DNA of 63,910 nucleotides, the filler included, from Licmophora abbreviata (lineage: Eukaryota): assembly GCA_900291995.1 (NCBI GenBank). It is 13 parts of 13 records of this genome, joined end to end, with 100 filler letters (N's around TTAATTAATTAA, not from the genome) between each part and the next. Parts side by side here need not be neighbours in the genome. Positions count along the whole stretch, not along the records: positions 57,164 to 60,442 come from OLMU01000860.1; 12 more parts are not named here. One strand, given 5' to 3'. The translations under genes and the position numbers were made by a program. The notes under the pieces were generated by a model. The model was not told the DNA's origin and made no database searches. It worked only from the letters and a program-made list of their open reading frames with translations. Each line of letters opens with the position of its first letter. The stretch's first letter is position 1. Of the stretch, positions 11,079-62,760 are shown one piece after another.

Positions 11079-14000
11079 ATGCCAACATCATTGCTAGAGG
11101 TAGTCCTCGATTCCAATTCCCCGTCTCCGTTTGCCAACTTGAAAGAGGATCCATCCCGCAATCATTGCGAATCGGTCGGCAGGGCAAAAAGCTTTACGGA
11201 GGGAGTAGCCATGTCGTCGCACGATGCAGACGAGAACAGGCAGGGAGGCGTCGGATCGACAGTCGCGGCACTGCATGCATCCTTTGACGCCGCGCTTCTA
11301 GAGACAGGCAAGGATACCGATTCAATCTTTCGGATTGACAAGTTGGCGAATGGAGTTGCTCAGACGTCATCGTGGGATGGGCATGAAATGAATCGAAGCG
11401 CCTCAGGAGAGCTCTCTGGGAGAAAGCACCTGCGTATTCCACCTCGAGAAGGTGTAGAAACTTGTGACGCGGTTGCGCCTGGAACTGTTAGGAAGCTCCA
11501 GAAAACTGATAGTATTACCCCAGCGTGTGAGACAGCAAAGACACCTGGCCGACACCTGCGACCGCCTGGATCTGCAATGAGGAAGTCGAAGACCCCGACT
11601 TCCGCGGCACGCAAAAGACGAACTCCGATGCGACAGCGGCATTCACCGCGCCTGCAGCAGAGGCGAGCAAACAGCGGCGTCCCACCTACTCCACTTGCCG
11701 GCAATGTACTGGACGGTTTTGCTATCCAGTCGCCCGTCACGCCGAAAGCTGCCCTCTTTGGAAAACCGCCTCCTTCGGGTACTCCCACTAGGACAACTCC
11801 TTTTTTCCCGCAGACCATGACGAAAGCCGCGAGGACGAGGGCTTCGTTGACGGGCACGACAGCAAGCGTAATGAGCACATCTTTGGACAATTCACAAAAG
11901 ACCGCAACTGAAGACGCGGCCTCGCCAACTCCGTTCCATTTCACGTCTTTCCCTGCGTCCTTGCCCCGTGTGAATAACCGCCGAGGGACCGACCGTGATA
12001 ATGATAGTCCCAAGCGTCGGCGGCCACCATACTCGTCTCGTAAGGGTGCGCCCGGGACGTTGGACATGGAAATTGATTGTGGTGAAGCGGATTCGAATAT
12101 CAAGTTGTCGGCGCGACCTCAACATTCAATGCAAAACTCTAGTCGCGAGGACACCCACAATTCTAGTCTGAGTAGCTGGTCAGGTGATGCGGGACATCTC
12201 CCGCCGCCTGAAGCGCCGTCCTTCCCACCTACGGTTCTTGAGTGGAAGTCACCGGAGAGCGACAGCGGGCCGCCGGCAAAGGAGACTGATCGTCGCCAAG
12301 ATGAACAGGAGCGACCTGGAGGCGCCTTCGCGCAGGACAACACGCTCTTTGCAGAAGACGAAAACGAGCAATACGGACCTAGTGACGAAGAGTTGATGAA
12401 CAGTCCGTCCGAAAGTCAGGTCACCCGCACGAGGCTGAACTTCAATTTGGTGGGCAAAGCCGATCGAGCCGACGAAGGTAGGTGAAGTGTGTCACTACGA
12501 ATGGTTGCATTGTGAGAAATCATTTCTCATCGCGTCGTTCCTGAACACTCTCTATCGATACAGGCGGCCATCGATCAGACAAGGCAAAGGCTGATGTCTC
12601 CATCTCTGTTTCGACGCAGACCGCTCTGTTCGATGCTTCGGGCTGTGAGGATGCGACGGCCGCATCGTCGTCGTCGATGACACCCAACAGGCATGGGACT
12701 ACTAGCGGACCTTTGTTTGCAAGGGGGGAGATCGGGCTTTCGCCAGTGTCCCGACATGAGGAGCAGTTTCCTTTTCGAATGGACGCTCAATGCTCCCCGA
12801 TTCCGGGGATTCCAGACGAAGAGGGGGGCCACCCGCATGTGTTGCGTTCGCGCCCGTCATTTCCAGGAAGTCCCGGTGAAATGGAAATAGACAGCCATTC
12901 CGCCAAACCTTTGACCAGAGCTCGAAAGAGCCGTCCGCCATTGATTCCATCCTCATCTCCAAGGAAACGCCCGCAGCGTGAGTCCGTCGGAAGCGCGACA
13001 ATAGAAAGAGCCGAAAACGACGAATCTTCCCGCCTTTCGCTCTCACAAGAATCGGAGGAGTCGGTGTTCTCGACAGCGAGTAGCAAGATGCGTCGATTGC
13101 GGCCGATGCCAGATATGTCAGCATTTGACGCTGGTTCTTCGCTTCGCAGCTCGTCCACCGTGAACACCACCGGCGATGAAAGTCCAGGAACATCGGAAAA
13201 CCGAAACCCACCTGCGTCTCCGAAGCTAGTTTGTCCCCCGACGCCAATGCGAACGCCAGCTTGGGCTCAGTCTGTGCATGGATCGCACGCTCCTCTAGCG
13301 AGGTCAAACTCACTGATCGCGACGAAGGTTCTTGCCACCTGTCCGATCCAAGTGCTTGATGGTCATTCGTCACTTGAAAGTTCGCTGTTGGATGACGACG
13401 ATGATGACCCTGAGCCAGAAGGCTTCGCACCTAGATTTCCGCCTGTTGAGGAAGGAATGGAGAATCTTTCTGATCTTCAGGAGATGTTGACAGACGATGC
13501 ACCGCCACGGACGAAGTTAACGCGACATTCCTCCCTTCCAGTCGCAGACATGCCACCACCCCCGCCCCTCGTGTCCAGAAGCTCGTGCAGCCCACGTGCT
13601 CTAAGCGGATTGGGGGGCTGTACGGCAGCGACCAACATGTCACCAAAGACTCCAGGGCCACTGAAGACAGCAACGCGCTTGTCGAGCGGATTCGGAGAAG
13701 TCGGTTCCATCGTTTCCTTTGCCGACAATTTCGAGAATTTGGGGGAACTTGGCACCGGAACCTTTGCGGACGTCTACAAAGTGCGCTCAAGGTTGGACGG
13801 TCAGCTGTATGCTNNNNNNNNNNNNNNNNNNNNNNNNNNNNNNNNNNNNNNNNNNNNTTAATTAATTAANNNNNNNNNNNNNNNNNNNNNNNNNNNNNNN
13901 NNNNNNNNNNNNNACCGGAACCTTTGCGGACGTCTACAAAGTGCACTCAAGGTTGGACGGTCAGCTGTATGCTGTGAAGCGAAACAGGCGCCAGTTCCGC

Positions 14001-20395: not shown

Positions 20396-20912
20396 CTTTC
20401 ATCTTCTTTGAGAGTATCATAGATGAAACGAGCTGTGGAGCTCGTCGCTCTTCGTGTCTGTGTCACCTGAGCACTTATGGACTACGACATTTTGTTCGGA
20501 TGCCCGCACATGCCGCCGGAGGCGCATCTGATCAGCAAAACTGCGACAAAAGTCGATCCCGTGGGAATGTGCGGGAATGGTCATCTGCGAATAGACTCGC
20601 AACTATACTACTCCAGCTACAAACACACGATGGTTCCTTCTATACTTCTACCCGCAAAAGTACAGTTGGGACCAAATTTCCATTCATCGAGTCACAGATG
20701 GGATCGAATTTTCGTCTCACAAAATTTCAACTGCAAAAAATTGACTCGTCTCACAAAAGCATCTCATTGTTTCGTCGCCGGCGTCGTCTTTACTGTGAAT
20801 TTCATCTTACCTNNNNNNNNNNNNNNNNNNNNNNNNNNNNNNNNNNNNNNNNNNNNTTAATTAATTAANNNNNNNNNNNNNNNNNNNNNNNNNNNNNNNN
20901 NNNNNNNNNNNN

Positions 20913-23133: not shown

Positions 23134-24195
23134 ATGCTCAGTGTCCTTAGAATTGCATGCCTGTGCTTCTCGCTGTCCGTCGGGACTCTGGCGTTCAGCA
23201 CGGCGCCTCGTCGCAACAACGTGCGCGCCGCCACTAGATCTGCTGAACTTCAAGAGGATCCGCCAATGGAGGNNNNNNNNNNNNNNNNNNNNNNNNNNNN
23301 NNNNNNNNNNNNNNNNTTAATTAATTAANNNNNNNNNNNNNNNNNNNNNNNNNNNNNNNNNNNNNNNNNNNNGCCTGGTTGGGAGGTGTCGCAACGGCTG
23401 CTGGACTCGGCGTGCTGTCGTCGTCGTCGCTACCCGCGTGGGCCAGCGGAGGGGCTACTGCGGGAAAGTACGCGTAAGTGCCGATGGAATCGTTAGTTTG
23501 CTTGCGGGTCGGGCTGGTACAGTGGGCAGTACTCAACACAGTTGTTTCCAATTCTATACGTAGAACTATTCCAATTGCCAAGAGACGTTACTATGGAAGG
23601 GTTCAGCAGGCCGTACATGACTTTCTCGCAATGGGTCCGGATGTCGTCAAGGGTGACATGACGGTTCCTAATATTCAGCAGTTCTTTGATGTCAAGGGAA
23701 CCGTCATTATTGAGGCCAAGCGCAAAGATATCAGTGGGCAGTGCACTAAAAAGGATGGAGACTGTAGAGGACAAGAAATACGAGACTCTCGATACAATGA
23801 CATGAAGACTAGCATGTATCTTTTGGCGGTGAGTTTTTGTGGTGGCGCAGTTTCGACCTCGCGAACGACAACACACGATCGACTTGTCTCACCTGAGACA
23901 CACATGCTCTTCGAAACTACTTCTCCAGAATGCATTTCGTTTGAATCAGACCAAGGCACCGGATAACTTGCCAACCGTCAAAGCTGCAAAGAAGTTCTTT
24001 CGTGAAATGGATGCCATGGAACGGGCAATCGTCAAGAATCCCAAAAAGAACGACCCGTCCACGCAGCAACGCTACTTGAATGCGTTAGATATTCTTGATG
24101 AGTATTTGGATTTGGTTGAGCTGCCACCTACCGAGTCGGGACATTACGAGCAAGAATTTTCAACCTTGGTAGGAGAATCGGCGAGACTAACGTAA
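23134..24195 (+). CDS. Plastid (probably thylakoid-lumen) protein of unknown function; introns 23474-23563 and 23829-23928; spans a gap
   Basis: Signal peptide ending TLA-F, transit peptide, then a hydrophobic stretch ending PAWA-SGG (A-x-A lumen peptidase-like site); exons join in frame. Confidence 0.7.
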
Positions 24196-25867: not shown

Positions 25868-25983
25868 NNNNNNNNNNNNNNNNNNNNNNNNNNNNNNNNN
25901 NNNNNNNNNNNTTAATTAATTAANNNNNNNNNNNNNNNNNNNNNNNNNNNNNNNNNNNNNNNNNNNNGCTAAAGATCGCGACC

Positions 25984-28554: not shown

Positions 28555-31500
28555 CTACCGTCGAATGTAAAATAGCATGTATGCCCCTTCACACTTCAAT
28601 ACATCGTCTCCCACGCTCCCATCATTGCTCGCAAGGCTAACATGTGCGTCGTTGCAATGATACCACTGCTCTCCCACCTTCACGTTCGATGTGTAGTGAC
28701 CCTGAACGAGCGTCCCCTTGTGATTAACACTTCCAAACAAGTCGTAAAGCAACTCTGGAGCGCTGCTATCGGCTGGACTAGGAGCGGCCACATCTTCGAC
28801 TTCGCGCCAGTGTGGAAGCAGTGGACCCATGTCGAGACCAAACTCCGGATATGACACGAAGTCTGTTATCTTGCGATTGTTGGCAGCATCAAAGCGCTTC
28901 AAATGAATACAAAGCACCTTGGGGAGTCGTGCAAATGTATGCTGTTTCCGTGTCGTCGTCTTTTTAGCGCAGGAAGGACAGTCCACAGGATCGGCCAATG
29001 CCTCGGCGTCCGTAAAGTGCTGTAGGCACCATTGTAAGGACAAGTTACTCGAACGAGATGTACCTTCCATTTGCTTGGCAAGGGGGAGAGAGATATTGAG
29101 ATATGTCTCGGGCAGAGAACGCTTGCATCCACATTCACCGCAGATCAGCACCGAGCGCAGAGTGCCCTCGAACAACTTATTGACAATATCTGCGACAAGG
29201 GGAAAGATAGGACAATTTGTGACAGCCATGAGACTCAACCATGATAACATAATCACAAGATAGCCACTGCAGTGCTCTCCCTACCACAATCTTGTCGTTG
29301 ACGTGTTCCTGTCATCAACTCTGGGCCCTTTGATGTGGAGGCCTGGTTGCGTATCTTGCGAACAGTATCTTGGTATATTCGGCAGTGTTTCCCGAGGGTG
29401 TCCAGAAAGGCTTGAAGGAATTCATGTGCATCGCGTTGCTCGTAGCCTGCCAGATGGTCCATACCGCCACTTCTCCAAGCAGCAGTTAGAAGGTCGGATA
29501 GTACGAGGGGCTCACCTCGCAAGTCCGCTTTGGACTCGGCCGATGCGCTGGCTTGATAAGAAAAGTGGTCCGAAGAGTTCGGGGGCTCACATACAGCGGC
29601 CCGCGCATCTTTCCCAACAGAACTCCCAAAGTAATCGAGAAAAATATTATCCATCTCGCATGCCAAGCAGATGTCGTCAATACTGTCAAGTGGCTTTGTA
29701 TCGCTAGTAGCAGCACCCGCACTTGCGGTGTCGGCTAGTAGCTGCTTCGCGACATATCGCCGAAGGCACCGACACGATCTGTGATCATGCCGAACATCAA
29801 GAAGAAAGTGACGCTGGAACGGAACACAGTGCACTAAGACGTTGATGACTGAACTCATGAAGCACGTTTGGCCAAGGTTGTACGCTCCGACAGGAGCACG
29901 AATCTTCCAATTATCAGTGCCTATTGGTGAAAACAATCGATGAAGACGAGTTGAGCGATCGCCGTGCCTGTACAACTGACTGCTCAGATAATCAATTCGA
30001 AGCACTAACCTCTCGACTCTTGATACAAGGCGAAATCCAAGGCCTTTGGCCCCCAAGTCAAAGACTGATTCCGTGGTTCACCTCTAAACACGCGCGAGCG
30101 ATGCAATGTCATCTGAGCCGCATTCCTATACTCGTTGGGAACCACTAATGGGTAGGACGCAAAGAGACCGCGCCACACGACACCATAGTCACTGATTGTC
30201 GCGAATTGCAGTGCATCAAAGGAGCGCTGAACTGGCTGCGCTGTCCATCCCATCCATGGTAGTCGCCGCGATATGTCAATTCTCTCGCGCTCTTGATCGA
30301 AAACAGCGTGGGCTACGAGATCTCCACAGTCGAAACAGTACACTTCCGCTCGATCGCCACAGGTGACAGCTATAGAGAGAATCAGCAAAAAGAAAGGAGA
30401 AAATCAGTGTCAAGTTCGAAGGTAGGCACTACGAGCATATTAGCGCCTCCAACGTACCAAAAGAGTGCCCAGTCTCAATCATGTGGTGGATAATATTGTG
30501 TGCCGAGCCGTTGCAGGAATCATTCGGGCCATAGCCAACGAATTCACATTCTAAGCACTGCAGGACGCCATCGCTAGTTGCTCTGCATGGGGTGTCGTTC
30601 CATACACGACTCGATGGGCGAGAACTATGCGCACCCAACGCTCCAAAGGGGGATATTGAGGTTTGCTGCTTGTTTTGTTCTCGATCCTGTCGATGATCCC
30701 AGTATGCATTACGACTCTGACGAAAGCGTTCCACCCATTCCTCCACCTTTGACCGAGCCAGCGTTGCGTCCTGTTCCCAGAGTTCTCTATGGATGCGGCG
30801 GGTATGGCCCTTGTCGCCGTGGGAGCCATGAGACCCAGCACTTCCGATGGAGTTTAAGTATGACCCAGGGAGTACCTGCGGAAGGCCAAGATCGACTCCA
30901 TTCTTTCCCTTGGTTGTCTCCTTCTTGCGTTTTTTCGACGCGGTTGCTGATTTCTTGTCCTTTCGCTTGGCTAGTGCTCCACGACGCTGCTGAAGAATGA
31001 GTTCTTCCATACGACGTAGCTCATGGTAGCGACCCTCTGGCAGAAGAAACTGGGTAGCGGGCTTTGCTTGTGAAGGCGGCGCTGCAGCGGGGGATATCGT
31101 ACTGCTGATTCCTCGTTCGGATTCGACCGACGAAGCTGCCACTTCCGGTACTACTGGGGTGACCAATCCGCCAGAGATCGGTGTTCCATCCTTCGATCCG
31201 ACAGTCACGGGTGCCCCCTGCGCAGATTTTTCCGGCATAGAATCAGAGACAGAAGACGTCGATACTTTCATCATTGATGTTTGTGCACCGAGTGAGCCTT
31301 CGCTTTTTAGGGGTGCGTCAGAGGCACGCTCGGGATCCCGATTGTTAGTAGAAGCAACGCCCGCCACTCCTTGAATAGGTGTAGTCACAGGCACTGGCGC
31401 GGCGACAGGCGTCGACGCAGTAGTTTCCGCCCCTCCTGAAGAAGCGATCTCCTCTCTCCCCAAGATTGTGACCGGACCTGCGCTTTCTNNNNNNNNNNNN

Positions 31501-31711
31501 NNNNNNNNNNNNNNNNNNNNNNNNNNNNNNNNTTAATTAATTAANNNNNNNNNNNNNNNNNNNNNNNNNNNNNNNNNNNNNNNNNNNNCCCTCCTGAAGA
31601 AGCGATCTCCTCTCTCCCCAAGATTGTGACCGGACCTGCGCTTTCTTCTGATTTCACTCCCATTGACACCGTCGCTTCCTCGCTCCCCGGCACGGCCTCC
31701 GAGGCGACCAT
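28555..31711 (-). CDS. Ubiquitin-specific protease (peptidase C19), USP22/Ubp8-like with a UBP-type Zn finger; multi-exon, start uncertain, spans a gap
   Basis: Cys box GAYNLGQTCFMSSV, EQRDAHEF, IHLKRF, His box VNHKG..GHY..WYHCND; Zn-finger CLEC...H.IHH...VYCFDCGD. Confidence 0.85.
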
Positions 31712-35054: not shown

Positions 35055-37250
35055 ATGGAGGACGAACGTCCAATGGAAAGCAGAATTTGTCCTCGCGTCA
35101 AACACAGGCGATCTCGGCGTCTACTCATCGCGTTTGCCATTCTCGCGGTCATTGTCTTGTTGATCGGGGTCGTAATTGTAGCCCTCTCTGCCGGCTCATC
35201 TTCTTCCCCTAGCGCCAGTAGTGTGGGCGATGAAAAGGTGCGCGTGCATGTACAATATACTGTCGGTACCACGTTGGCCAACGCTCATGTCTTTTCGCTA
35301 ATTATATGCCGTACAGAATTCAGCTACTGCCAGCCCCAGCCCAACACGCGACGAAGAAATGATGTCACCGAGCCCTAGTACTACAGCGCCACAACCAGTC
35401 GATCCCAACATACCGCCCCGACCGAGTTCTATGGCACCATCGCAGGCAACCAAAACTCCTCTGCCAAGCACAATACCACAGTCACAAAACCCGACCGCAG
35501 CTACAGCCCAGCCAAGTTCTATGACCTCCGAACCAAGCCCTGTAACTGAGAGTCCTGTCACTGCTCAACCAAGCAACGTAGCAAGCTCACCGATGGTCAC
35601 GGCGACGGCATCTCCGGTGGGCGGGGCCTCTTCTCCAACAATACAGCCATCTGCTTTTCAGACTGGAACCCCATCATCGTTTTCTTCTTCTCCCACGTTA
35701 CAGCCATCGGTGTTCCCGACATCGTCACCGACAGTCAGTATCACTGGAGTCCCATCAGCTGGTACGTCTTCCCCAACTCTACTACCGTCTGTGCTTCCGA
35801 CGGCAGCAGCATTCACGGAAGGCCCATCGACAGGCTCGTCTTTTCCGACAACGAAATTATCTGCGTTTCCGACCTCAATACCGACGGTCGAAACTAGTGA
35901 CGCCCCATCGGTAGGCACCTCTTCTCCAAGTCCACCGCCAACCACCTTGCCGATTCCTCAAGTCACTATGTTGCCAGTACCACGTCCGACTGAGTTCCCA
36001 TCACCACAACCTACCTCACGACCAAGTTCACTCCTCACATCAGAGCCGACATCGACACCAGCGGCGCAACCAACGACATTGCCTACACCAGCACCAACGC
36101 CGCGACCAACGACATTGCCTACGCCAACACCAACGCCAACACCAACGCCACAACCAACGACGTTCCCTACACCTGCACCGACGCCGCGACCAACGATGCT
36201 CCCTACATCAACACCAACGCCACGACCAAGTGTGCTGCCAACGTCGGCGCCGACGCTGCGACCGACTATGCTGCCTACACCACAACCCACGATTGTCACA
36301 GCACAACCATCAGACGTTGTAGTAGCTGCGCCGACGCCTCCGCCGGCTTCGTCCGTCGCCGGCCAGGAACTCCCCACGTCGTCGACAGCTGAAGCGTCAC
36401 TCCGCACATCGGCTCCATCGTTTGATCCACAGGGTCCCACTGCTGCGGTACTGCTTGCCGAGGGTATCACGTACCNNNNNNNNNNNNNNNNNNNNNNNNN
36501 NNNNNNNNNNNNNNNNNNNTTAATTAATTAANNNNNNNNNNNNNNNNNNNNNNNNNNNNNNNNNNNNNNNNNNNNTTTGACGACCGGAACCCGAGAGTTC
36601 CTCGTTTTTTCGTATCTGAGGACCGGTCGCGAGGTGCACTGCGACGCTTTACACCTAATACTGTGAACATGGAGGATCCATGGAGTATGTTACATGGTAA
36701 CGGCACTTTGCAGTATCTCGTAATGATGCCTGGTTCCGGTGACAACGCACGGGGAACGTACTACTGGACGGACGATCAAGACGAAGCGAAGGCTAATGCG
36801 CAACAGCACTATCCTTACTCGGAAGGGATTGATCGAGACAAGAACATTCTATATATGGTTTGTAAAAAGGTGAAATGGATTTTCCTGATTAACCTGGACG
36901 ACTTCACCTATGAGCGATATTCAACTGAACACGGAGTGTTTGATGGAAAGCCGGATCAGATAAGCCGCATTGTGGGATCAAATCAGGATATTCTCTATTT
37001 TAGCGAAGAGCATGGAGAAACTAATGGGATTCATGGAAGGAACAGTGTTGGTCAGTTCTTTACCATTCTCGAGTTGCCGGGCCATCGAAGCGAAACGACA
37101 GGGGTAAGCTTTTCTCCAGATGTGAAACGCATGTACTTTGCTGGGCAGGACGATGGTATTGTCTTTGAAGTGAGGCGCGCAGATGGCCGTCCGTTTCATG
37201 GCAAGACATTGAACGTCCACTATCACAACCAAGCGGCGGGGCCGTCGTGA
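35055..37250 (+). CDS. phoX: Membrane-anchored PhoX-family phosphatase, copy 2 (long mucin-like stalk; N-half of the catalytic domain lost in a gap); intron 35238-35316
   Basis: TM exon, about 385 aa PT/PS-rich stalk to EGITY, gap, then FDDR..FFVSED..GALRRF...SEGID...[10 protein letters not shown]...FHG, collinear with copy 1. Confidence 0.82.
35940..36300 (+). repeat. Degenerate coding tandem repeat of PT(T/M)LPTP(A/T)PTPR units in the phoX copy 2 stalk
   Basis: Repeated CCAACGACATTGCCTAC / CCAACGCC units. Confidence 0.8.
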
Positions 37251-37767: not shown

Positions 37768-39025
37768 ATGGTGACTGTTTCGCATACAATTTGTCGCTGG
37801 AGAGACAAGAGGTCGCGTCGTTTGGCCAGAATCGTTGGTGTATTGACGGGCGTCTTGGTCTTGATCGGTGTCACAGTCGTCGTGATCGTTGTAGCCGCCT
37901 CCTCCCGTTCCAGTAGTGAAGTCCCTGTGGAGGTGAGAATGCAAGAATTGGTCTCTCTGAAGGGACACAGAGTGCGATCTCAACTAACCATGATGTCCTG
38001 TGTCACTAGGAGCCGCTTGACGACCTAGCCAGTCCCAGTCCCAGTTTCAGCCCCACACTGAATCCCAGCCCCTATCCGATTGAGTCGACGTCTGAATCTC
38101 CCTCCTCAATACCCAATACCAGTACGCCGAGCCTCAGCACTGGAAGCCCAGTTGTATCGACATCACCATTGCCTGGCTCTCCCGCTCCGTCGCTCGATCC
38201 ACAGGGTCCCACCGCAGAGGTATTGCTCGCTGAGGGTATCACGTACCNNNNNNNNNNNNNNNNNNNNNNNNNNNNNNNNNNNNNNNNNNNNTTAATTAAT
38301 TAANNNNNNNNNNNNNNNNNNNNNNNNNNNNNNNNNNNNNNNNNNNNTTCGACAACCGGGATGCGAGTCGGCCCCATTTCTTTGTATCGGAGGATCGATC
38401 ACGCGGCGCGCTCCGACGTTTTGCGCCCGATTTGGTCGATTGGGAAGATCCTTGGAGCATGCTGCACGGCAATGGCACTCTGGAGTACCTCGTCCTGGAA
38501 CCTGGTTCCGAGGACAACGCGACTGGCACGTACTACTGGACATCTGATAAGCGCGAATCGCAGCTCAATGCACAGCTAAACTACCCCGACTCGGAAGGGA
38601 TTGATCGCGATAAAAACTTCCTGTACATTGTGTGCAAAAAGGTGAAATGGATGTTCATCGTTAATCTTGACGACATGACGTACGTGCGACACTCGACAGT
38701 ACATGGCGTGTTCGATGGGAAGCCGGATCAGTTGGGTCGTATCCTGGGGAAGGACCACGATATTCTGTATTTTACGGAAGAGCACGGACGTACGAACGGA
38801 ATTCATGGGCGAAACAGTGCGGGGCAGTTCTTCACCATTCTGGAGACGCCAGGCTATCGAAGCGAAACGACTGGCATTTCATTTTCGCCCAACAGTATGC
38901 GCATGTACTTTGCAGCTCAGGATGACGGTGTGATATTCGAGGTGATGCGCGCGGACGGAAGACCATTTCATGGAATGACGTTGAACGTGCACTATCACAA
39001 CCAGGCGACGGTACCATCTTTGTAG
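37768..39025 (+). CDS. phoX: Membrane-anchored PhoX-family phosphatase, copy 3 (short stalk; same part missing in a gap); intron 37933-38009
   Basis: TM exon, about 79 aa stalk to EGITY, gap, C-terminal half closely similar to copy 2 ([14 protein letters not shown]...ETTGISFSP...FHGMTLNVHYH). Confidence 0.82.
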
Positions 39026-51682: not shown

Positions 51683-52109
51683 GATGACCAGCCTATAAGC
51701 TCTTACTCATTGCTCGCAGGGCTGTCAATCAATGCAACTTTTTAATTGTGCAGCTGTCGTTCCCGGGCTAACGTTCAATCCTTCATGGGTTCATTTGGCC
51801 GACACTCGACTGACTCCCACACTCGCAGACGGTGACGATGCGGTACATGTACAAGAAAAGATTGTACCTGCTAGCCTGGTAGGAACCTATGATANNNNNN
51901 NNNNNNNNNNNNNNNNNNNNNNNNNNNNNNNNNNNNNNTTAATTAATTAANNNNNNNNNNNNNNNNNNNNNNNNNNNNNNNNNNNNNNNNNNNNTCGAGC
52001 AGTTACTCGATGGTAAGCATATCTAAGAAAGTTCGCCAATGTCCCTTCTCTTCGACGTCTTGTGAAGCCGAGTCGCTGACTGCCGTCACGCACATGCGCA
52101 TCTTCTCAT

Positions 52110-54185: not shown

Positions 54186-54766
54186 AATAGAGAAACACTG
54201 ATGATGATCCGGCGGACCGTTGTAGGCTGGCAGTGGCTGTGGTAAGAAACGGCACGGCTACGAACGAGGTTACTCTTTGATTTCTCATAAATCATGTTAG
54301 AAGAAGAAAACATAGCTTAGCACGTAGCATAGCGAGCACCAGGAACCAAAACGTCGGATCGACAAGGACATGTAAGAGATGTTGTTGTGGTGTTGAAGTT
54401 CCCCGTGGCAAAAGTTCATGCCCGGAGCCCGGGTCAGAAAGATGCGCGCGATATCTTCAAGCTCCATTCGCGCGGTTTCCGCGCGGCTGACGCGTGCGTG
54501 TTTTGTTTGTATGTGCCGGATCGAGTCGAGACGAGATGTCAACAAAATGGCACCGCACTCTCGCTATCATCGCCGCTGCTGTCGAATCTCTTTGTCTTGC
54601 TTGTCGTCACTTGGAAAGACCGTAAGCTGAGGGAACAATTCCTCAGGTCATTTAGGTTTTAGGGGATTCTCAGAATCAAACGAGGCTAGTCTGCCAACGA
54701 CAAACCAGGCGCCGCTTTGGAACACTCCTGCTGCTTCTTGTCAGGTCAAGGAACGACGGGGTGAAA

Positions 54767-57700
54767 ATGAGGGAATCGCTGTCGAAGCTTCTTATAATTG
54801 CGCTGACATTGACATGTATCGTTGGGCCGACCTCTGCTTTCGTGAGTGTCAATCATGTCTCGAGCGTTTCTCTTTCTGGGATCAGTTCTACGACGAATTC
54901 GAGAGTGGCCCATCGGCCGCTAGTGACTCAGCTCTATGCCACCAAGGAAAAAGAGAAGACCGCGACGAAGGACGGCACACCTCTTGTAACAGAGCGCAAG
55001 GCCCGTAACGGCTGGAGATCACGACGTCGGAGTCGTCGTGATCATCATCATCAAGAAGAAGAAACGGTGGATATTAACGTGACACAATTGCTCGAGGAAG
55101 TGTCGGCCGCTAACGCAACGTTGCGGGAACCTCACGTACAGGCTGCGGAAGATGTGGTGGAACTCGTAGAAGAGCTCAATCGTCGAATCGAAGATGGGTC
55201 AAAGGAAATGTTTGGTAACCTTACCGCCGTAATGGAACAGAAGCTCGACATTCTTCCGGAGTCTGCTGCAGACGATGTATCAGGCTTCATCGCCAACTTG
55301 ACAAAACAGATTCAAAAGGCCCAGAAAAAGGAAATGGAGCGACAAGTCATGGAGTTTGAGTCGCGCATCGTTCGGCCGCTTGAAGATTTTGCATTTTCGG
55401 ATGCGGCGCCGAATAAGAGATCCAAGGAAGATAGGGATCGGGATCAATTGATCCTCAAGGGAGTGAATTCGACGGTGGAGGAGTCGTCGAGGAGGATGCG
55501 AACAGCAGAAATCATGCGCAACTTGAATGTCGCGCCATTTTACTACTCCATTGCTCTGTTGCAGCGATGGTTTCGGAAACTATCATATCCGCCCATGATT
55601 TTGATCTCCTTGTGGTCGAGTCTTGCCCGCGTCGTCAAGAGCAACTCGCCTCAGCTTGTTTCCCGCAAGAACTCGGAGGGACAGACATATGAAGAGTACA
55701 TTCAGACTGCCGAAGTTATGCAGGCTGGGTGGAAGCGCACGGGTGAGATTGCGGCCAAAGGTTCCTGGGGGAAGAAGTGGGCAATCCTTCGACGGTCGGC
55801 CGAGATTTGGGCTTATTTTAGTTCGTTTTACATCAAAGAGAAGCGCATGGTAAGCAAGTACAATAGTGGTCGATGGTCCAAAGAGAAGTTCACCAAGGAG
55901 AGATCCAAATTGGGGGCAGAGGTGACCCAAAACCTGCTTAAATTGGGACCTACGTTCATCAAGGTAAGTTTGCGTGCGGGGCCGTAGTCCGGTAACAATT
56001 CTATTTGCAGTATTTCTGACCAATGCTGTCAAATCGCACCGGCACGAATAGGTTGGTCAACTCTTTTCTACGAGGATCGATATCGTCCCGAAAGAATATA
56101 TTGAAGAGCTCAAACGTTTGCAAGACAATGTTCCGCCGTTCTCGGGTCAGCTCGCTGCCCAGATCATTCAGGACGAACTGGGAAAACCTGTCGAGCAGCT
56201 CTTCGATTCATTCAACAGTACATCACTTGCTGCGGCTTCCCTCGGACAAGTTCACATTGCAACAAAGGGTGACAAAACGTTTGCTATCAAAATCCAGAGG
56301 CAATACCTGCGTGAGCTCTTTGCCGTGGATCTGGGGCAGCTGCGACAACTTGCCGCGTTCGCTGACGCTCTCGACATCACGTCAGAGGGAGGTCTCCTTG
56401 ACCGAAACACTCGTCGAAGTTGGGTGAGCGTTTATGAAGAAAGCAAACGCCTCCTTTATGAAGAGATTGATTATCTAAATGAAATGGAGAATTGCAACAG
56501 GTTTAGGTGAGCAACCGCGTTTGAAAATCCGGATTGTTCGCCTTGGGTGAACGTTACTCAGTATGTCAGTTCTTTCTACTACAGGCGCAATTTCGATACT
56601 CCAAAGTTTCGACACATCGCTGTCCCAGGCACGTATCCTGAGTATACGACCGAGAAGGTGCTCTGCATGGACTATCTTCCTGGAATCAAAGTCACCGACA
56701 AAGAAAAAATACTGGAGGCGGGCATGGACCCGGTTGATATTAGTATCAAATCTGCGGAAAGTTTTCTGGAGCAGCTCTGTCGACATGGTTTTTTCGTGAG
56801 TACTCGTACTGCGTGGGCAACCAAACCAAGCTATGCTAGAACGATTCAACTTATCATTGATCATTGCTTTGTCCATATCCACAGCATAGCGACCCTCACC
56901 CTGGAAATGTCGCCGTTGAACCGGGACCCAGGGGAGAAACACGGCTGATATTTTATGACTTCGGTATGATGGACTCATTTGGTCAGAAGGAGCGGAAGGC
57001 GCTCGTTGATTTCTTCTTCGCTGTTTACTACGATGCCAATGTGAAGGACGCGTGTAGTGCTCTNNNNNNNNNNNNNNNNNNNNNNNNNNNNNNNNNNNNN
57101 NNNNNNNTTAATTAATTAANNNNNNNNNNNNNNNNNNNNNNNNNNNNNNNNNNNNNNNNNNNNGACGAAGTCTCGTGGGAGAACGAGCTAAGCGAAGAGG
57201 AGAAAAAGAGTGTTAACCGACGACGCCGCGCACAGCTCGGGGAAGAGTTTCTGTCCATGAACGAAGATGCTCCGTTCGTGTTCCCCCCAACATGGACGTT
57301 CGTCTTTCGAGCATTCTTTTCATTGGATGGCATCGGAAAAACGTTAAACCCCAAGTACGATTTAACCAGGATTGCGCTCCCGTACCTGAAGGAGCTCTTG
57401 GATTTGAAAGACGGCAATGCCTTCAAGACTTCGGCGCTTCGCCTAGGGAAACGTGTTGGACTTCGACCTGAAGACATCAATCAGCTCGTGACACAGCCGC
57501 GGCGAGTCGCTAAAGCGGAAGACACAATCCGGAGGTAAGTCGCTTTGAAGATTAGCAGAATTTTGGTCTCCCCAAGTGAACCGCTTCTAACACGAGCTCC
57601 CTCGTTTTTCTTTCGAGGAAGATTGGAAAAGGGAGATTTCAAGTTGCGCGTCAGAGCTATGGAAGTGGAGAGACAACTTCAGAGAAGCAAACTTGTTCAA

Positions 57701-57910
57701 AAGAATACCTTCGCTGCAGTGCTCTCGTGCTTACTGCTGAACACAGGAGTATGCGTTGCAACCGTCGGGCGAGAAGTCGCTTTTTCCAACCCCTTGAGCA
57801 AGGCGTTGTTTGTGGGAGCCGGAATCCTCGGTTTGAGAGTACCGTACGGTATCATTCAGGTCACAAAGCTGGACAAGTACAACGAACGATTTGGAGTGAG
57901 AAACATGTAG
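54767..57910 (+). CDS. Plastid ABC1/UbiB atypical kinase (ABC1K7/ABC1K8-like); multi-exon, spans a gap
   Basis: SAF bipartite presequence; LGPTFIK^[40 protein letters not shown] and [15 protein letters not shown]. Confidence 0.92.
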
Positions 57911-58020
57911 GATCTAACTTCGAGACTGTCGATATACAACCATCTCAAGAGATGTTATCATCACACGCGTACTAGCTAGCACAATTAGTCTATTCACTAA
58001 CGTAAAATAAGACCGTGACC

Positions 58021-60442
58021 CTACGGTTCCCCCCGCGAGGCGTTTCGAGCAGGGGAAGCGGGACTAGTTTCGCGAGCCGATTGAAGCTGTCCCTGGAATT
58101 CACCTTGCTCCCACTGGCTGTTGGGGCGACCGGTGCCTTCGGATTTCAACACCTTCACCATGACAGCTACATCTTGAATAACAATCTCGTCCCTGTGATA
58201 CTTGCTCATGACGCGCTGGACTGATCTAGGAGACTTGAATCGAACCAGACCTAACGGGAGGACAGACAGGAAACAAATCCATTGTCAGAACAGAATTCGA
58301 TCACCATGACGCTACAATAACAGAAACGACAAGCGAGCAACACACCAAATCCACGTGAATTAGACGCAACCGCGGCTTTGTCGATTTCGCCAAACTCTTG
58401 GAAAACCTCCTCTAGCTTCTTGCTTAGCGCTCTCTTACGCATTCCCGTGACTATGACGGAGTTTTCCGGAATCTCGTGAGCAAGCCTTAGTCCGAGCATG
58501 GCTGCGCACTCATGAATGGCACGAGATGCATCGACGGGTTTCATTATGCCATGACGTACGCTCGCAACCATCTTGTTCAGCAACTCTTGCATAAACATTC
58601 GCCTAAGCAGTGCGACGGTGTAGAAATGCAGAATGAGCGGCGATCGATCACACGACGAGTTAACTCAAGCAACCATGGGCATACCTTTCTTCCTCTGAGG
58701 CCATCTCCTTACGCTTTAGCCAATCGTTTGCTTCGCACAAAGCACTCGCTTCTATTTCCATGCTATCCCCCTTCCCTCCCCACGAGAGGTCATAAATGTC
58801 TACTGGCTGAGCATCGTCTTCCATTAATGCCTTTGTTAATGCCTGACTCATCATTCCGTCGACACCGGCAACGTTTCCTTCGACCTCGTTGCGCATTCGC
58901 TCCAAGTTCTGGTCCTTGAATTGATCAAACTCATCCGCGAGATTTTCAGTGCCATCGGCCTCGTCATCAGACTCACCGCCCATTCCCATCGATTCGCCAG
59001 TCGAAAGCATCGACTGGTTCGAACGCAGGGACAGCGACGGTGAGATCATGCCTGACAACGGTATCGGCGCCGCTGTCGTGGATGTATATGCTGGATCCTG
59101 CGTGTCCACCATGATGTTCGAGTCACCTGGTAGCCGAGGCTCTGCGCTTCGCCGACTGGCAGCCGCTCGATTTTGGTACTCCTTCTCTTGCAAACGCTTC
59201 CTGTATCGATAAAACACGAACAATGCCACCAGGACGGCAGAAATACCGACAATAGAGACGGCCACAATTATGGCGGTGCTGGTACTGCTTGAGCCGGAAT
59301 CTGGCGTCGGTGGGACTGTTGGAGCAGGCTCCGGAGAGATTGCGGACGGAGGCATGGACGGACTCTGACTCGGCATTAAGCTCGGTACTCCCGAGATTTT
59401 GACGGTCGGGGAAGCTGAGGGCACGCTCGATTCTGTAGGTGTCATTGTGGGTGGTTCGGAAGCGAGAGACGGAAACGCGCGCTCTGCTTCCAACACGTCC
59501 AAACCAAGGGCTTGCAAGTCAGCCGCGACTCCCAAAAGATCTTGATTGACAGTACTGAGAAACAAGAGCGAGTACCCGGTCACATTCTCGTGCCTTGATA
59601 GCCATGTCATCCGATACCCGATATCATTCAACGCCGTTTGCAATCGTCGTGACCCCAATCGTCGTGCATCCGGTCCAAAATCAAACAGTTCTTGGGAGCG
59701 AATCTCACAGGTCGTCAAGATCCGATCGTCATCTTGTTCCCGAGTATTGAAGATGGTCGTCAAGTTTGCCATGTAGCCACAAAAGAGCGCTTGTTCCGTG
59801 TCGTTGAAAACGACGCTACTGGCAATGGTGAATCTCTGACTGAACGACTGTCGGTCCTGAATGACATTACTAAAGGTCGGTTCTGCCGAGGGCGAGACGG
59901 AAGGACTCGCTGTGGGGATGTTTGTCGGTGATTCGGACGGAAAATCTGTCGGCTGTGCTGTCACAGTCGGAACCCCTGTCGGTAATTCGGACGGAAAATC
60001 TGTCGGCTGTGCTGTCACAGTCGGAACTCCTGACGGGACGGGTGTAGGAATAGGCGACTCTGTTGGAACATGCGATGGCTGCACTGACGAGGATGGGGAG
60101 GCCGATGGACCCACTGTCGTCGAGGGAAAGGGCGAGGGACCAACTGAGGGTTCATCCGTCGTTAAACGGCTGGGTTCGCTAGTAGATGGCGACATGGTGG
60201 TCGTTGGAAGCGGTGTGATCGTGGGATTTTGGGACATAGTCGGTATGCTGGAAGGAGCATTGGAAGCGGTCGGTGTCGGAGATAGTGATGGTCCAAGAGT
60301 CGGCTGCGCGGTGCCTCTTGCTAAGGTCGACAGTATCCCAAGCCACCACAACCCCATTAGCGATCGGCTTCCCCTTCGTCGACGTACTTTCGGCCAAGAC
60401 TCAAGTCCTGCTGCAGCCACGATCCTCGGGACGGATGACACG
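58021..60442 (-). CDS. Type I single-pass membrane protein: signal peptide, P/S/T-rich ectodomain, TM helix, cytoplasmic tail ending in an RRM; exons (gap)60442-58685, 58602-58346, 58250-58021
   Basis: TM AIIVAVSIVGISAVLVALFVFY followed by RYRKR; spliced C-terminus has RNP2-like VIVTGM and RNP1 RGFGLVRF. Confidence 0.78.
59931..60027. repeat. 54-nt-period coding tandem duplication (VPTVTAQPTDFPSE x2)
   Basis: ATTCGGACGGAAAATCTGTCGGCTGTGCTGTCACAGTCGGAAC at 59931 and 59985. Confidence 0.9.
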
Positions 60443-60962
60443 NNNNNNNNNNNNNNNNNNNNNNNNNNNNNNNNNNNNNNNNNNNNTTAATTAATTAANN
60501 NNNNNNNNNNNNNNNNNNNNNNNNNNNNNNNNNNNNNNNNNNCCACTCCCTAATAGTAGCAGGCACCGTTATTAGTTATTAGTCGAGTCAGTCGAGTCGA
60601 GTCAAGGAGCCAGCAGCACGAAGAAGCTGATATCTGATATCGTATTCGCCATGGCTGAGCTTGTTCATTGATTCTGTATATTCGTAAACGTACATGTAGA
60701 TAATAAGTGCGACCGTTTAAAGACCATAAAATACTTTACATAAAATACTGCGAGTTCACTTATTGAGTGTCGCGTATCCCAATTCACACCGTATTGTACG
60801 ATTTCAACTGTCGAAAAAATTGTGACCAAATGCGAACAGATTGCAAACACGGAGATAGTTTTTTTTGGCTGCGGCGCACAGCAAGCACCCTTCAACCTGG
60901 CCGTGCCATCGACCCGTTCTTGTTGCACCATATTACGGTGCCGCTCTAGTTCCCTCCCCACC

Positions 60963-62066
60963 ATGGGTATCAAGACTAGCAGTACTGCTGCACGGGTGCG
61001 TGTAGGCATCTGCTCCTTCTTGATGGCACCTTTATTGGTGGCCCTTGTGAGCATCCCCATCCTCAAGACAATACAAAAAGGTCATCCGTTGAAGTACGTG
61101 TATGCCAATCTTCTCCTCTTCACCCCCTTTCGCCAGCAGGCCATGGAAACATGGCCCAAAGTGCTGGAGTTAGGCGCCGAGATTATTCCCAGACATAAAA
61201 TTGCTGAAATGAACGCCGCTGACTTCACCATGGACTCTTTGGACAAGTTGTCCAATCATTTTCGCGACCCCGTGCTGATTCGAGGATTGTTCTCCGATAC
61301 GCCTGCCCTTACCTTGTGGGAGAAGCCAGGATACCTTCGAGAGAAACTGGGAGATCTGTACGTTCCCGTTGTCAATGATGCCGGCTACTCTAGCACGCAA
61401 GAGGATCGAACGGCCATGTACTTTCGAGATGCCGCTGAGGAGATCATGAACAATGCCAACTCCACCAAGTATCTCTTCTTTCCAGTCAAATCGCGCTTCC
61501 ACAGCAACTTTAGTGCCGTCCAAACAGAAGAAAGTATTGAACGCATCAATCAGCTTGTGCTGGATGATTTGCACATCGACTCCAAAATATTCCGAGGATT
61601 CGGCACTGAAAGTCACAAGACCTACGCCGGTGCACAACTCATCATTGGGCAGGGGCATGCTGATTCCGAGAAGAGCACTGGCACAGGGTGGCATTGCGCC
61701 CCCGGAAATAATTGGTTTGTTCAGGTGACAGGACGTAAACGTTGGTATTTCATTGATCCGGCCTATTCGCCCTATCTTCACCCGCTACGGGGTGGAACAG
61801 TGAACATGGCGACCGGCACAGCCAACATGTCCTACTATGAACAGTTTATTCCTGTTGGGTATGGTGACGTCGAAGCGGGCGATGTGCTGTACAATCCCGA
61901 TTGGCAATGGCATACCATTGTCAATTATGAAGGCCTTAGCATCGGGGTGCCTATGCGAGAGTTCAATGTATCGCTCAGCGTACAGAACAATGCTCAGTTT
62001 ACGTCCATTGTGGGGATCAACGTACTGCTTGACAAGTTTGGACTGTCGATTGGTGGGTACGCATAG
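60963..62066 (+). CDS. JmjC/cupin-like domain protein with an N-terminal membrane anchor
   Basis: PVLIRG, TGWHCAPGNNWFVQVTGRKRWYF and GDVLYNPDWQWHTIVN. Confidence 0.88.
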   Translation: MGIKTSSTAARVRVGICSFLMAPLLVALVSIPILKTIQKGHPLKYVYANLLLFTPFRQQAMETWPKVLELGAEIIPRHKIAEMNAADFTMDSLDKLSNHFRDPVLIRGLFSDTPALTLWEKPGYLREKLGDLYVPVVNDAGYSSTQEDRTAMYFRDAAEEIMNNANSTKYLFFPVKSRFHSNFSAVQTEESIERINQLVLDDLHIDSKIFRGFGTESHKTYAGAQLIIGQGHADSEKSTGTGWHCAPGNNWFVQVTGRKRWYFIDPAYSPYLHPLRGGTVNMATGTANMSYYEQFIPVGYGDVEAGDVLYNPDWQWHTIVNYEGLSIGVPMREFNVSLSVQNNAQFTSIVGINVLLDKFGLSIGGYA

Positions 62067-62760
62067 CGAACAAAGAGGACCGGCGCTTGTGACACGTGGC
62101 TCACACACTTTCGACTAGATGGCGAACAGAGTCAGTCAGTCTGGAGGATACCTGTAGACAAACAGCTTTGTACAAATCCTCAACGTTTTCATTCAGGTAG
62201 CTCGTACTAGCAAGGAATACATGTCATACGACGTGGTATACTCGAGCACGTACATCTTATGAGGAAGTACTGCAATAGATAATCTGCTGAATTGTCTCTA
62301 TAGTAGTCCCTGTCGAGTTACTGTTCTAGAGGAAAAAAGCACCCCCTACTAGTACATCGTCGCAATCGCTCACCTATCTTTGTACACGCATACTCACTGC
62401 CCTCAGTCATTACAGTGAAAAAGGCTTGGGCATTTTGATTTGCTTCAACGTGGGTTCCGCCGTGAAAGAGCCGTAGAGAGATTCGGGCTGCGCCACGTTG
62501 CTGTTGCTTCGGGGACGCGCCTTGCTGTCGACAGAGGAGTGCTGGTGGGGCTGACCGCGATTAACAAGAACAAATGAAACAGTGTTAGTGTTCAGTTAGC
62601 GTGATGAAAGCGAAATGCAAAGGAACAACAACGTCCGTGCTGCGACATTCTCGATCGGCGNNNNNNNNNNNNNNNNNNNNNNNNNNNNNNNNNNNNNNNN
62701 NNNNTTAATTAATTAANNNNNNNNNNNNNNNNNNNNNNNNNNNNNNNNNNNNNNNNNNNN

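Follow-up and report, generated by a model that had tools for sequence, protein, structure and literature searches.

The 63,910-nucleotide (nt) stretch of Licmophora abbreviata DNA analysed here (assembly GCA_900291995.1; hereafter the window) carries, on the minus strand at 58021-60442, a gene for a membrane protein whose predicted cytoplasmic tail contains an RNA recognition motif (RRM). The locus belongs to a family that is spread across the diatoms and whose members are predicted type I glycoproteins with a single membrane pass, and the deduced architecture, in which Pro/Thr/Ser-rich stalks and a SEA/MAD-like globular domain are followed by a transmembrane helix, a linker, a helical domain and the RRM, is very probably correct. 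Our best explanation of the whole, to which we assign a probability of roughly 0.42, combines this family membership with a tail that serves as a membrane-anchored platform for RNA or ribonucleoprotein (RNP) and an ectodomain that is processed at an RxL motif. The conserved β-sheet face of the RRM would hold RNA or RNP at the cytoplasmic face of the membrane. The glycosylated ectodomain, located at the cell surface or in an endomembrane lumen, would report on, or anchor in, the extracellular matrix or wall, and would probably be processed at the RxL-containing loop of its globular domain.

A first-pass annotation of this DNA had listed a signal-like segment, a PT/PS stalk, a globular region containing RRLGSRRLQ, a second stalk, one transmembrane helix with an RYRKR stop-transfer, a linker, a helical domain and an RRM. 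All of these are present on the minus strand at 58021-60442, with the stop-transfer reading YRYRKR in full. Its interpretation is partly supported by the present analysis: a single gene, the RRM fold and the statement on RxL processing are borne out, and its suggestions of mRNA tethering or of a coupling between outside cues and RNA control keep the conditional standing discussed below.

A three-exon gene with conserved intron positions

The gene lies on a 3,279-nt piece of the window (57164-60442). Three minus-strand exons (60357-58685, 58602-58346 and 58250-58021) join to a 2160-nt coding sequence for a 719-residue protein, terminated by a TAG codon at 58023-58021; residue numbers are counted throughout from the first ATG at 60357. 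Both introns are of the GT..AG type (82 nt for intron 1 and 95 nt for intron 2). The unspliced frame meets a stop seven codons inside intron 1. The minus-strand stop-to-stop frame comprises 608 codons, from the N gap at 60443 to 58660, of which 15 codons are X over the gap, and the remainder of the product is carried by two further minus-strand frames. Intron 2 interrupts the RNP1 motif as RGFG|LVRF, within the Gly codon (G|GT). The intron is in phase 1, so a complete RNP1 octamer is encoded by the spliced transcript only, as the first-pass annotation had claimed.

The junctions in the source organism rest on comparative evidence. The spliced product aligns with the homologue P0002 in one segment (residues 20-683 against 121-795, 43.6% identity), and its cytoplasmic part is 62-67% identical to the five best-scoring homologues over 228-259 residues spanning both junctions. 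Profiles built from the family match the spliced product end to end, with 207.9 bits (E 3e-66, positions 1-134) for the helical domain and 118.1 bits (E 6e-39, positions 1-77 of 77) for the RRM, which excludes a chance match. Relatives were found at four metagenomic loci. Three of these (L001, L002 and L003) do not differ wherever they overlap and were counted as one; L004 represents a second species. Intron 1 occupies the same codon and phase in both relatives (AT|A and AA|G, with AG|G in the window), and intron 2 splits the same RGF-G Gly codon, G|GT, in the window and both relative species. Between species the intron lengths vary and the flanking coding sequence is conserved. In addition, 103 of 238 family proteins end within 40 residues of the exon-1 boundary, as expected if gene callers ignoring introns ran on genomic contigs. 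Several full-length homologues are open reading frames (ORFs) from MMETSP transcriptomes, so that one transcript encodes ectodomain, transmembrane helix and RRM together in those species. For the family, the earlier view that these parts belong to one gene therefore holds, since whole-ORF relatives, several of them from MMETSP, carry all three in a single frame.

In L002, and likewise in L001 and L003, intron 2 (3764-3868 in L002) has a length of 105 nt, which keeps the reading frame, and contains no stop codon. As a consequence tblastn reads through it as a 35-residue insertion inside RNP1, and gene models built without RNA evidence would bear a disrupted RRM in a relative of this type.

It is scarcely credible that the gene model is an artefact, with RRM exons derived from another transcript or from a pseudogene remnant. 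The reliance of the junctions on comparison, and the position of the gene on a scaffold piece of just 3.3 kb, where a gap adjoins its 5' end, speak for such an error. Against it stand the collinearity of the product with full-length homologues over both junctions, the conservation of intron positions and phases elsewhere, and the mere 110 nt that separate the stop codons of this gene and its convergent neighbour, which leave no room for another gene. On the strength of these sequence comparisons, the locus is a real three-exon diatom gene.

The C-terminal domain is a predicted RRM

When the exon pieces of the window are scored apart, Pfam matches to the C-terminal domain are weak (RRM_1 15.0 bits, E 0.024; RRM_3 14.7 bits, E 0.033). 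We scanned 15 homologues against RRM_1 (PF00076), for which the gathering cut-off is 20.7 bits. Seven score above it (P0002 36.7, P0101 34.6, P0011 32.7, P0033 30.4, P0021 28.9, P0026 28.7 and P0107 28.3 bits) and three below (P0025 20.1, P0078 17.1 and P0005 13.0 bits), and an RRM_1 match is absent from P0006, P0009, P0108 and the exon-1-truncated P0001 and P0003.

An AlphaFold model was obtained for P0011, the closest homologue (62.5% identical over the cytoplasmic part), using 98 aligned sequences. It consists of a transmembrane helix, a disordered stretch, a set of helices and then a β-α-β-β-α-β domain at residues 365-436, with a predicted local distance difference test score (pLDDT) of 90-98. 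The strands of this domain span 365-369, 390-395, 403-407 and 430-436, and the helices 377-384 and 410-422. Foldseek matches P0011 to 180 PDB chains at E≤1e-3, for example RRM1 of ZNF638 with a template-modelling (TM) score of 0.89 and a root-mean-square deviation (rmsd) of 1.2 Å over 73 columns. Structural comparison with VIA gives Z scores of 10.8-13.4, and the best 50 matches are all RRMs. The RRM fold, named in the first-pass annotation, is thus confirmed at the level of the homologue model and of the homologues above the RRM_1 cut-off. For the family we regard the modelled C-terminal domain as settled to be an RRM.

The RNP motifs are conserved to different degrees. The canonical RNP1 consensus is [RK]-G-[FY]-[GA]-[FY]-[ILV]-x-[FY], and that of RNP2 is [ILV]-[FY]-[ILV]-x-N-L. 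Over the 98 sequences RNP1 reads R87/K9, G97, F95, G94, I58/L34, V78, R98 and F71/Y27; the window version, RGFGLVRF, agrees with the consensus at 7 of 8 positions, with Leu at position 5. RNP2 reads V/L/I, I75/L10/V9/M3, I/V, S/T, G96 and M90. The window sequence VIVTGM does not satisfy the RNP2 consensus, and no aromatic occurs among the four commonest residues at position 2 in the 98 sequences; the hydrophobic positions are retained, and position 5 is Gly in 96. The outward-facing positions of β3, including the invariant Arg, and the E-I-V-V-Q-D-V stretch before and in β4 are nearly invariant, while helix positions such as 376-383 vary, which indicates that the β-sheet face is under constraint. 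Such constraint fits RNA binding, and it fits equally well a permanent partner such as the acidic helical domain. The RRM carries a net charge of +6 over residues 604-680 and is followed by a tail of 39 residues (681-719). Assignment as a UHM-type or xRRM-type RRM was set aside, as RNP1 is intact and no R-x-F follows α2 in the alignment.

Linker and helical domain

Between the membrane and the RRM lie a linker, whose equivalent in the homologue model has low pLDDT, and a strongly conserved helical domain (residues 468-599) with a net charge of -12 over residues 471-603. In the P0011 model the helices occupy residues 230-353 with block-mean pLDDT of 82-96. A phmmer search of PDB sequences with the helical domain returned only chance-level matches (E 0.17 and 0.22), and a feature search of the ESM Atlas gave no usable match; a whole-protein Atlas search with P0033 reached a score of 0.79, under the usable level. 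With the whole of P0011 as query, the VIA and Foldseek lists are filled by RRM matches. A homodimer prediction with two copies of P0011 residues 225-445 scored 0.00, which gives no verdict and is evidence neither way.

The linker contains a Ser-rich motif (58990-59049, minus strand; consensus SPSESLxSNQSLLSxG) that is nearly invariant in the family and lies about 30 residues before the helical domain. Possible roles for it are as a cluster of phosphorylation sites, as a docking site or as a site of cleavage.

A family found in diatoms

A search with the cytoplasmic part of P0002 yielded 176 proteins at E≤1e-3, and the listing covers the 120 best of them. All family members listed that bear an organism name (most carry none) are from diatoms: Thalassionema, Fragilaria, Cylindrotheca, Seminavis, two Nitzschia, a Bacillariaceae sp., Fistulifera (two copies), Mayamaea, Epithemia and the centric Rhizosolenia. 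Source annotations among these listed matches read "hypothetical protein", "expressed unknown protein" or "RRM domain-containing protein". With the exon-1 cytoplasmic segment of the window as query against 1.84 billion representatives, 241 clusters score E≤1e-3, and 179 of them reach E≤1e-10. In a search with the exon-1 protein itself the best match is only 45% identical, so that the collection searched evidently did not offer this organism's own protein.

The helical domain was recognised in 238 of 240 proteins submitted to an architecture census. It is accompanied by the RRM in 130 of the 238. Besides the 103 proteins, mentioned above, that stop close to the exon-1 boundary, five have a tail of 44-90 residues and no RRM, with a profile match that still ends at the exon boundary. 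A complete helical profile without an RRM was found in none of the 238. Of the 210 proteins with at least 150 residues before the helical domain, all but one (209) have a transmembrane-like segment in that part. By these profile matches the architecture is conserved across diatoms, and the design proposed in the first-pass annotation is shared by the diatom relatives.

A search of full-text literature, with subscription journals and supplements outside its scope, turned up no publication that describes either an RRM protein with a transmembrane helix or a SEA-like mucin in diatoms. The name Pt2015, which came up in this context, belongs in the excerpted text of PMC9701398 to an unrelated plastid protein of 147 residues.

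Topology and ectodomain

The transmembrane helix is the sole strong hydropathy peak of the protein (3.0), and an equivalent helix is modelled in the homologue P0011. Basic residues follow the helix, and N-x-S/T sequons are found on its N-terminal side only. These features point to a type I topology with a cytoplasmic RRM, and we infer both this topology and glycosylation of the product. The ectodomain has three sequons, NDT185, NLT198 and NVT258, of which NVT is kept in the family majority consensus. Stalk 1 gives a Pfam PT repeat match under the cut-off (E 6e-4).

The globular region was modelled from window residues 155-300 with 66 aligned sequences, giving a mean pLDDT of 91.3 and a predicted TM score of 0.85. 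The modelled elements are β(12-24), α(32-44), β(59-72), a loop, β(88-100), α(108-129) and β(134-137). In VIA comparisons against representative chains, membrane-adjacent extracellular domains rank first, at 6-8% identity in the structural alignments to SEA/MAD domains. Protocadherin-15 MAD12 heads the list (Z 9.1, 8.9 and 8.8; rmsd 3.1 Å, 100-102 residues aligned), and MUC16 SEA structures follow (Z 7.9, 7.5 and 7.2; for SEA5, at Z 7.9, rmsd 3.3 with 107/122 aligned). Gpr126 (Z 6.9), TMPRSS6 (6.8), CELSR1 (6.4), a transmembrane-protease SEA domain (6.3), Cadherin-23 MAD28 (6.0) and IA-2 (5.9) also appear; by structure identifier, 8gkl scores 7.5, 1ivz 7.2 and 2e7v 6.3.

The sequence ARRLGSRRLQ lies in the globular region, with RRL at 232 and 237, and RRLGSRRLQ sits in the loop of the sole β-hairpin of the model (model residues 73-87). 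The domain is complete in 65 family members; in 44 of these the hairpin loop contains one or more RxL motifs, usually two around a variable insert, and 34 have RxLQ immediately before β3. Animal SEA domains have their cleavage site in a β-hairpin (PMC10556640, excerpted text), and RxL is a proposed processing motif of diatom wall proteins in the excerpted text of PMC5647440, in agreement with the first-pass annotation. On this basis the position of the motif suggests that the hairpin loop may be cut at RxL. The SEA/MAD-like fold and the placing of RxL in the loop are new points in favour of cleavage, as positional analogy and not as evidence of cleavage.

Loops of three types occur in the family: paired RxL…RxLQ, two-Cys (for example D-C-x3-D-P-x-C in P0005, P0006, P0070 and P0009) and short (9-14 residues). 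Members with the two-Cys loop can also be told apart by a cytoplasmic signature of their own (LQDEFDQYKDQNLEQLRS, FEGIMSAAVTKALMG), a sign that the loop types may represent old paralogues.

Weighing the proposed role

Several observations weigh against our best explanation. At the level of the gene, the N-terminus abuts the scaffold gap: above the first ATG a further 28 codons are free of stops, and the frame is still open where the 3,279-nt piece ends at the gap (60443-60542), so that the assigned start is provisional. In most homologues whose sequences were read, a Met is found no more than about 15 residues from the equivalent hydrophobic segment, which makes the first ATG a reasonable start. 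The one sequencing run aligned to the locus gave a single 175-nt contig at 59405-59579, within exon 1, and no joints.

For the RRM, one of three canonical stacking aromatics is retained (RNP1 position 3); RNP2 has Ile, Leu or Val in place of its aromatic, and position 5 of RNP1 is Ile or Leu. The best PDB sequence matches to the domain include Y14/RBM8A (E 1e-4), an RRM protein whose β-sheet binds the protein Magoh and not RNA. Furthermore, with an acidic helical domain (-12) next to a basic RRM (+6), the sheet could be masked intramolecularly. These features bear directly on an alternative in which the architecture is the same and the RRM is a protein-binding or structural module without RNA binding, coupling the glycoprotein to cytoskeletal, trafficking or signalling partners or packing permanently against the acidic helical domain. 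We consider this unlikely, though it has to be taken seriously. It would account for an RNP2 without an aromatic and for an RNP1 position 5 that is aliphatic in all but a handful of the 98 sequences, for the protein-binding use of the sheet in Y14/RBM8A, and for a helical domain and RRM of opposite net charge that always occur together and are co-conserved. It is harder to square with the 7 of 8 RNP1 positions kept, the invariant extra Arg and the basic first position, all as expected for nucleic-acid contact; in addition, loss of the canonical aromatics does not preclude RNA binding by an RRM, as PTB shows. A precedent for protein partners comes from the diatom silicalemma-associated proteins (SAPs), whose conserved cytoplasmic domains were proposed by the authors of PMC5647440 to bind cytosolic or cytoskeletal proteins (statements on SAPs here and below refer to the excerpted text of that paper). 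That the predicted RRM tail binds RNA or RNP at the membrane remains our preferred account of it, as a tentative proposal a little short of an even chance.

For the ectodomain, the same VIA list also holds unrelated ferredoxin-like folds (a nucleoporin chain at 7.5; PheRS, Cas6 and ACT at 6-6.7), best Z scores of 7-8 are common with this tool, and values up to 9.1 fall in a range that it calls middling. Foldseek against the PDB returned generic ferredoxin-like matches with TM scores of about 0.3, with no SEA domain among the matches listed, and Pfam SEA (PF01390) had no match to the exon-1 protein even at E≤10. A search with the ectodomain alone against longer proteins gave none at E≤1e-3 among 1520 candidates, a weak test as the search relied on word sharing. 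The modelled domain is SEA/MAD-like by fold and position; because Pfam SEA has no match, Z scores of 7-8 are common and ferredoxin-like folds score similarly, we do not file it as a member of the SEA family. As to processing, 21 of the 65 members have no loop RxL, with loops that are short or have two Cys instead. The autoproteolytic motif of animal SEA domains is G/SVVV; no conserved Gly-Ser followed by hydrophobic residues occurs in the loops of the 65 members, and GS is present in the window loop only.

Another alternative is a receptor that works by a proteolytic relay, as Notch, MUC1 or RsgI do. A cut at RxL in the hairpin loop would leave the two halves of the SEA-like domain associated, force or wall damage would strip off the N-terminal part, and a second cut would set free the helical domain with the RRM, whose RNA targets would lie in the cytosol or nucleus. 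The SEA/MAD-like fold adjoining the membrane and the paired RxL motifs around a variable insert in the hairpin loop of most members are in keeping with such a relay, as are the reports that SEA halves stay associated and feed mechanotransduction or intramembrane proteolysis (PMC10556640, excerpted text) and that the cytoplasmic part of TpSAP3 is cleaved off (PMC5647440). In the diatom family, cleavage is a suggestion from motif position, the G/SVVV motif is not conserved and the 21 loops lack RxL, and we judge a relay of this kind improbable. A long shot, too, is a diatom-specific form of it, a surface-to-RNA relay in which a SEA-like, RxL-processed mucin receptor would sense the mechanical or wall state at the cell surface or in the silica deposition vesicle, and shedding and then a second cut would release or activate the helical domain and RRM for direct control of the localisation, translation or stability of specific mRNAs. 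If true, it would follow Notch- or RsgI-like logic with an RNA-binding protein, not a transcription regulator, as its output.

The membrane-anchored RNA or RNP platform with RxL processing is the reading we favour. The silica walls of diatoms are patterned, and the cells also form matrices for adhesion or gliding; to our knowledge the coupling of events outside the plasma membrane, or in the wall-forming vesicle, to gene expression is largely unknown in these organisms. The family is conserved and easy to recognise, and is a concrete candidate, open to experiment, for a role in translating wall or secretory proteins locally or in signalling directly from the surface at the post-transcriptional level. 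With it, the range of SEA-like membrane-proximal domains, here with a hairpin possibly cut by a protease, would come to include a photosynthetic stramenopile lineage.

Feature coordinates and neighbouring genes

Table 1. Features of the RRM gene and its product, in order along the minus strand (positions in the window).
Feature	Position	Strand	Basis or remark
Open frame above the first ATG (…KVRRRRGSRSL)	60358..60442	-	Part of the 5' leader, or coding sequence for a missing N-terminus
First ATG and signal-like hydrophobic segment, residues 1-18	60304..60357	-	Sequence features
Stalk 1, Pro/Thr/Ser-rich, mucin-like, residues 21-165, 61% P+T+S	59863..60297	-	
54-nt tandem duplication in stalk 1, 2.1 copies, 95% matches, 18-residue repeat (GVPTVTAQPTDFPSE.PT)	59923..60036	-	
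Globular ectodomain, residues 166-296, predicted β-α-β-β-α-β sandwich, SEA/MAD-like	59470..59862	-	Model and VIA
β2-β3 hairpin loop, residues 227-241, RRL-GS-RRLQ	59635..59679	-	
Stalk 2, Pro/Thr/Ser-rich, residues 297-360, 65% P+T+S over residues 306-360	59278..59469	-	
Transmembrane helix, residues ~360-382, and basic stop-transfer YRYRKR, residues 383-388	59194..59280	-	Hydropathy
Disordered linker, residues 389-467, with family-conserved Ser-rich motif (MISPSLSLRSNQSMLSTG in the window)	58957..59193	-	
Acidic helical domain, exon-1 part, residues 468-557 (LADEFDQFKDQNLERMR … DWLKRKE)	58685..58956	-	
Intron 1, GT..AG, phase 2	58603..58684	-	Codon position and phase as in L002 and L004
Exon 2: remainder of helical domain and RRM from β1 (RNP2, VIVTGM) to RGF-G	58346..58602	-	
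RRM, residues 603-679, split by intron 2	58144..58469	-	Family RRM profile and homologue fold
Intron 2, GT..AG, phase 1, in the RNP1 Gly codon	58251..58345	-	Position and phase as in L002 and L004
Exon 3: remainder of RNP1 (LVRF), α2, β4, 39-residue tail and TAG stop	58021..58250	-	

The window is composed of 13 pieces of 1.1-13.5 kb joined by identical 100-nt linkers, each made of 44 N, TTAATTAATTAA and 44 N. The linkers lie at 9366-9465, 13814-13913, 20813-20912, 23273-23372, 25868-25967, 31489-31588, 36476-36575, 38248-38347, 51895-51994, 57064-57163, 60443-60542 and 62661-62760, and any feature that touches one is consequently incomplete. An ABC1 atypical-kinase gene on the plus strand (54656-57910) spans the linker at 57064-57163: its Pfam ABC1 match (E 1.8e-10) stops at the linker and the open frame resumes beyond. 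As this gene runs across the linker, the two pieces it joins are in their true order. Its stop codon (57908-57910) is 110 nt from that of the RRM gene, so that the two genes converge tail to tail, and with a gap of this size their 3' untranslated regions must be very short or overlapping.

On the next piece, a plus-strand open frame of 440 codons (60744-62066) matches Cupin_8 (E 6e-16) and JmjC_2 (E 5e-5) and represents a JmjC-type hydroxylase or demethylase-like gene. A plus-strand ORF of 209 codons at 59861-60490, rich in Gly, Val and Asp, was taken as the antisense shadow of the Pro/Thr/Ser stalk coding sequence and not as a gene.

Comparison with known systems

In outline the family resembles animal SEA mucins and receptors such as MUC1, MUC16, PCDH15, Gpr126 and TMPRSS6, which likewise combine a Pro/Thr/Ser stalk, a membrane-proximal β-α-β-β-α-β domain with a processing-type motif in its β-hairpin loop, one transmembrane helix and a cytoplasmic tail. 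The diatom proteins differ in having no sequence similarity to them, an RxL loop instead of the autoproteolytic site, a second stalk between domain and membrane, and a tail formed by the helical domain and RRM. A bacterial parallel is the SEAL-domain anti-sigma factor RsgI, whose juxtamembrane SEA-like domain is cut in the β-hairpin (PMC10556640, excerpted text). RsgI is also single-pass, with a cytoplasmic part that controls gene expression; as a bacterial, autoproteolytic system in which that part has a sigma factor as its binding partner, it offers an analogy only.

Within diatoms, the closest outline is that of TpSAP1-3, type I membrane proteins with a signal peptide, a Ser-rich lumenal part, RxL and one transmembrane helix (PMC5647440). 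The SAPs, found mostly in centric diatoms, have a conserved segment of 28 residues directly after the helix and Ser runs of 14-36 (PMC5647440). Shared with the RRM family are the type I topology, a lumenal part rich in hydroxy amino acids, RxL and a conserved cytoplasmic region; the likeness is one of outline. This outline, signal peptide included, together with the restriction to diatoms among the named members listed, would suit a silica-deposition-vesicle protein of the SAP or silicanin kind that acts in frustule morphogenesis, its RRM being incidental. Such a role is decidedly improbable. Where SAPs have their 28-residue segment, the RRM family is unconserved after YRRR, and conservation resumes at SPSESL…, some 60-90 residues on, leaving no such segment by position; the stalks are Pro/Thr/Ser-rich and not poly-Ser as in the TpSAPs; and neither a globular ectodomain nor an RRM is mentioned for SAPs in the excerpted text of PMC5647440.

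The C-terminal domain shares with canonical RRM proteins (ELAV/HuR, hnRNP D, PABP and Y14/RBM8A) its predicted fold, the RRM_1 match in homologues and 7 of 8 RNP1 positions. It departs from them in an RNP2 without aromatic and Asn (V/I-I-I/V-S/T-G-M) and in a β2-β3 loop shorter than that of HuR. In contrast to these proteins, the diatom protein has a single RRM, which adjoins an acidic helical domain peculiar to the family and is tethered to a membrane. Integral membrane proteins that hold RNA at an organelle surface include AKAP1, p180/RRBP1 and MTDH, which use KH/Tudor or basic disordered regions and are without a large glycosylated ectodomain. Compared with these, the diatom family would place an RRM on a receptor-like type I glycoprotein.

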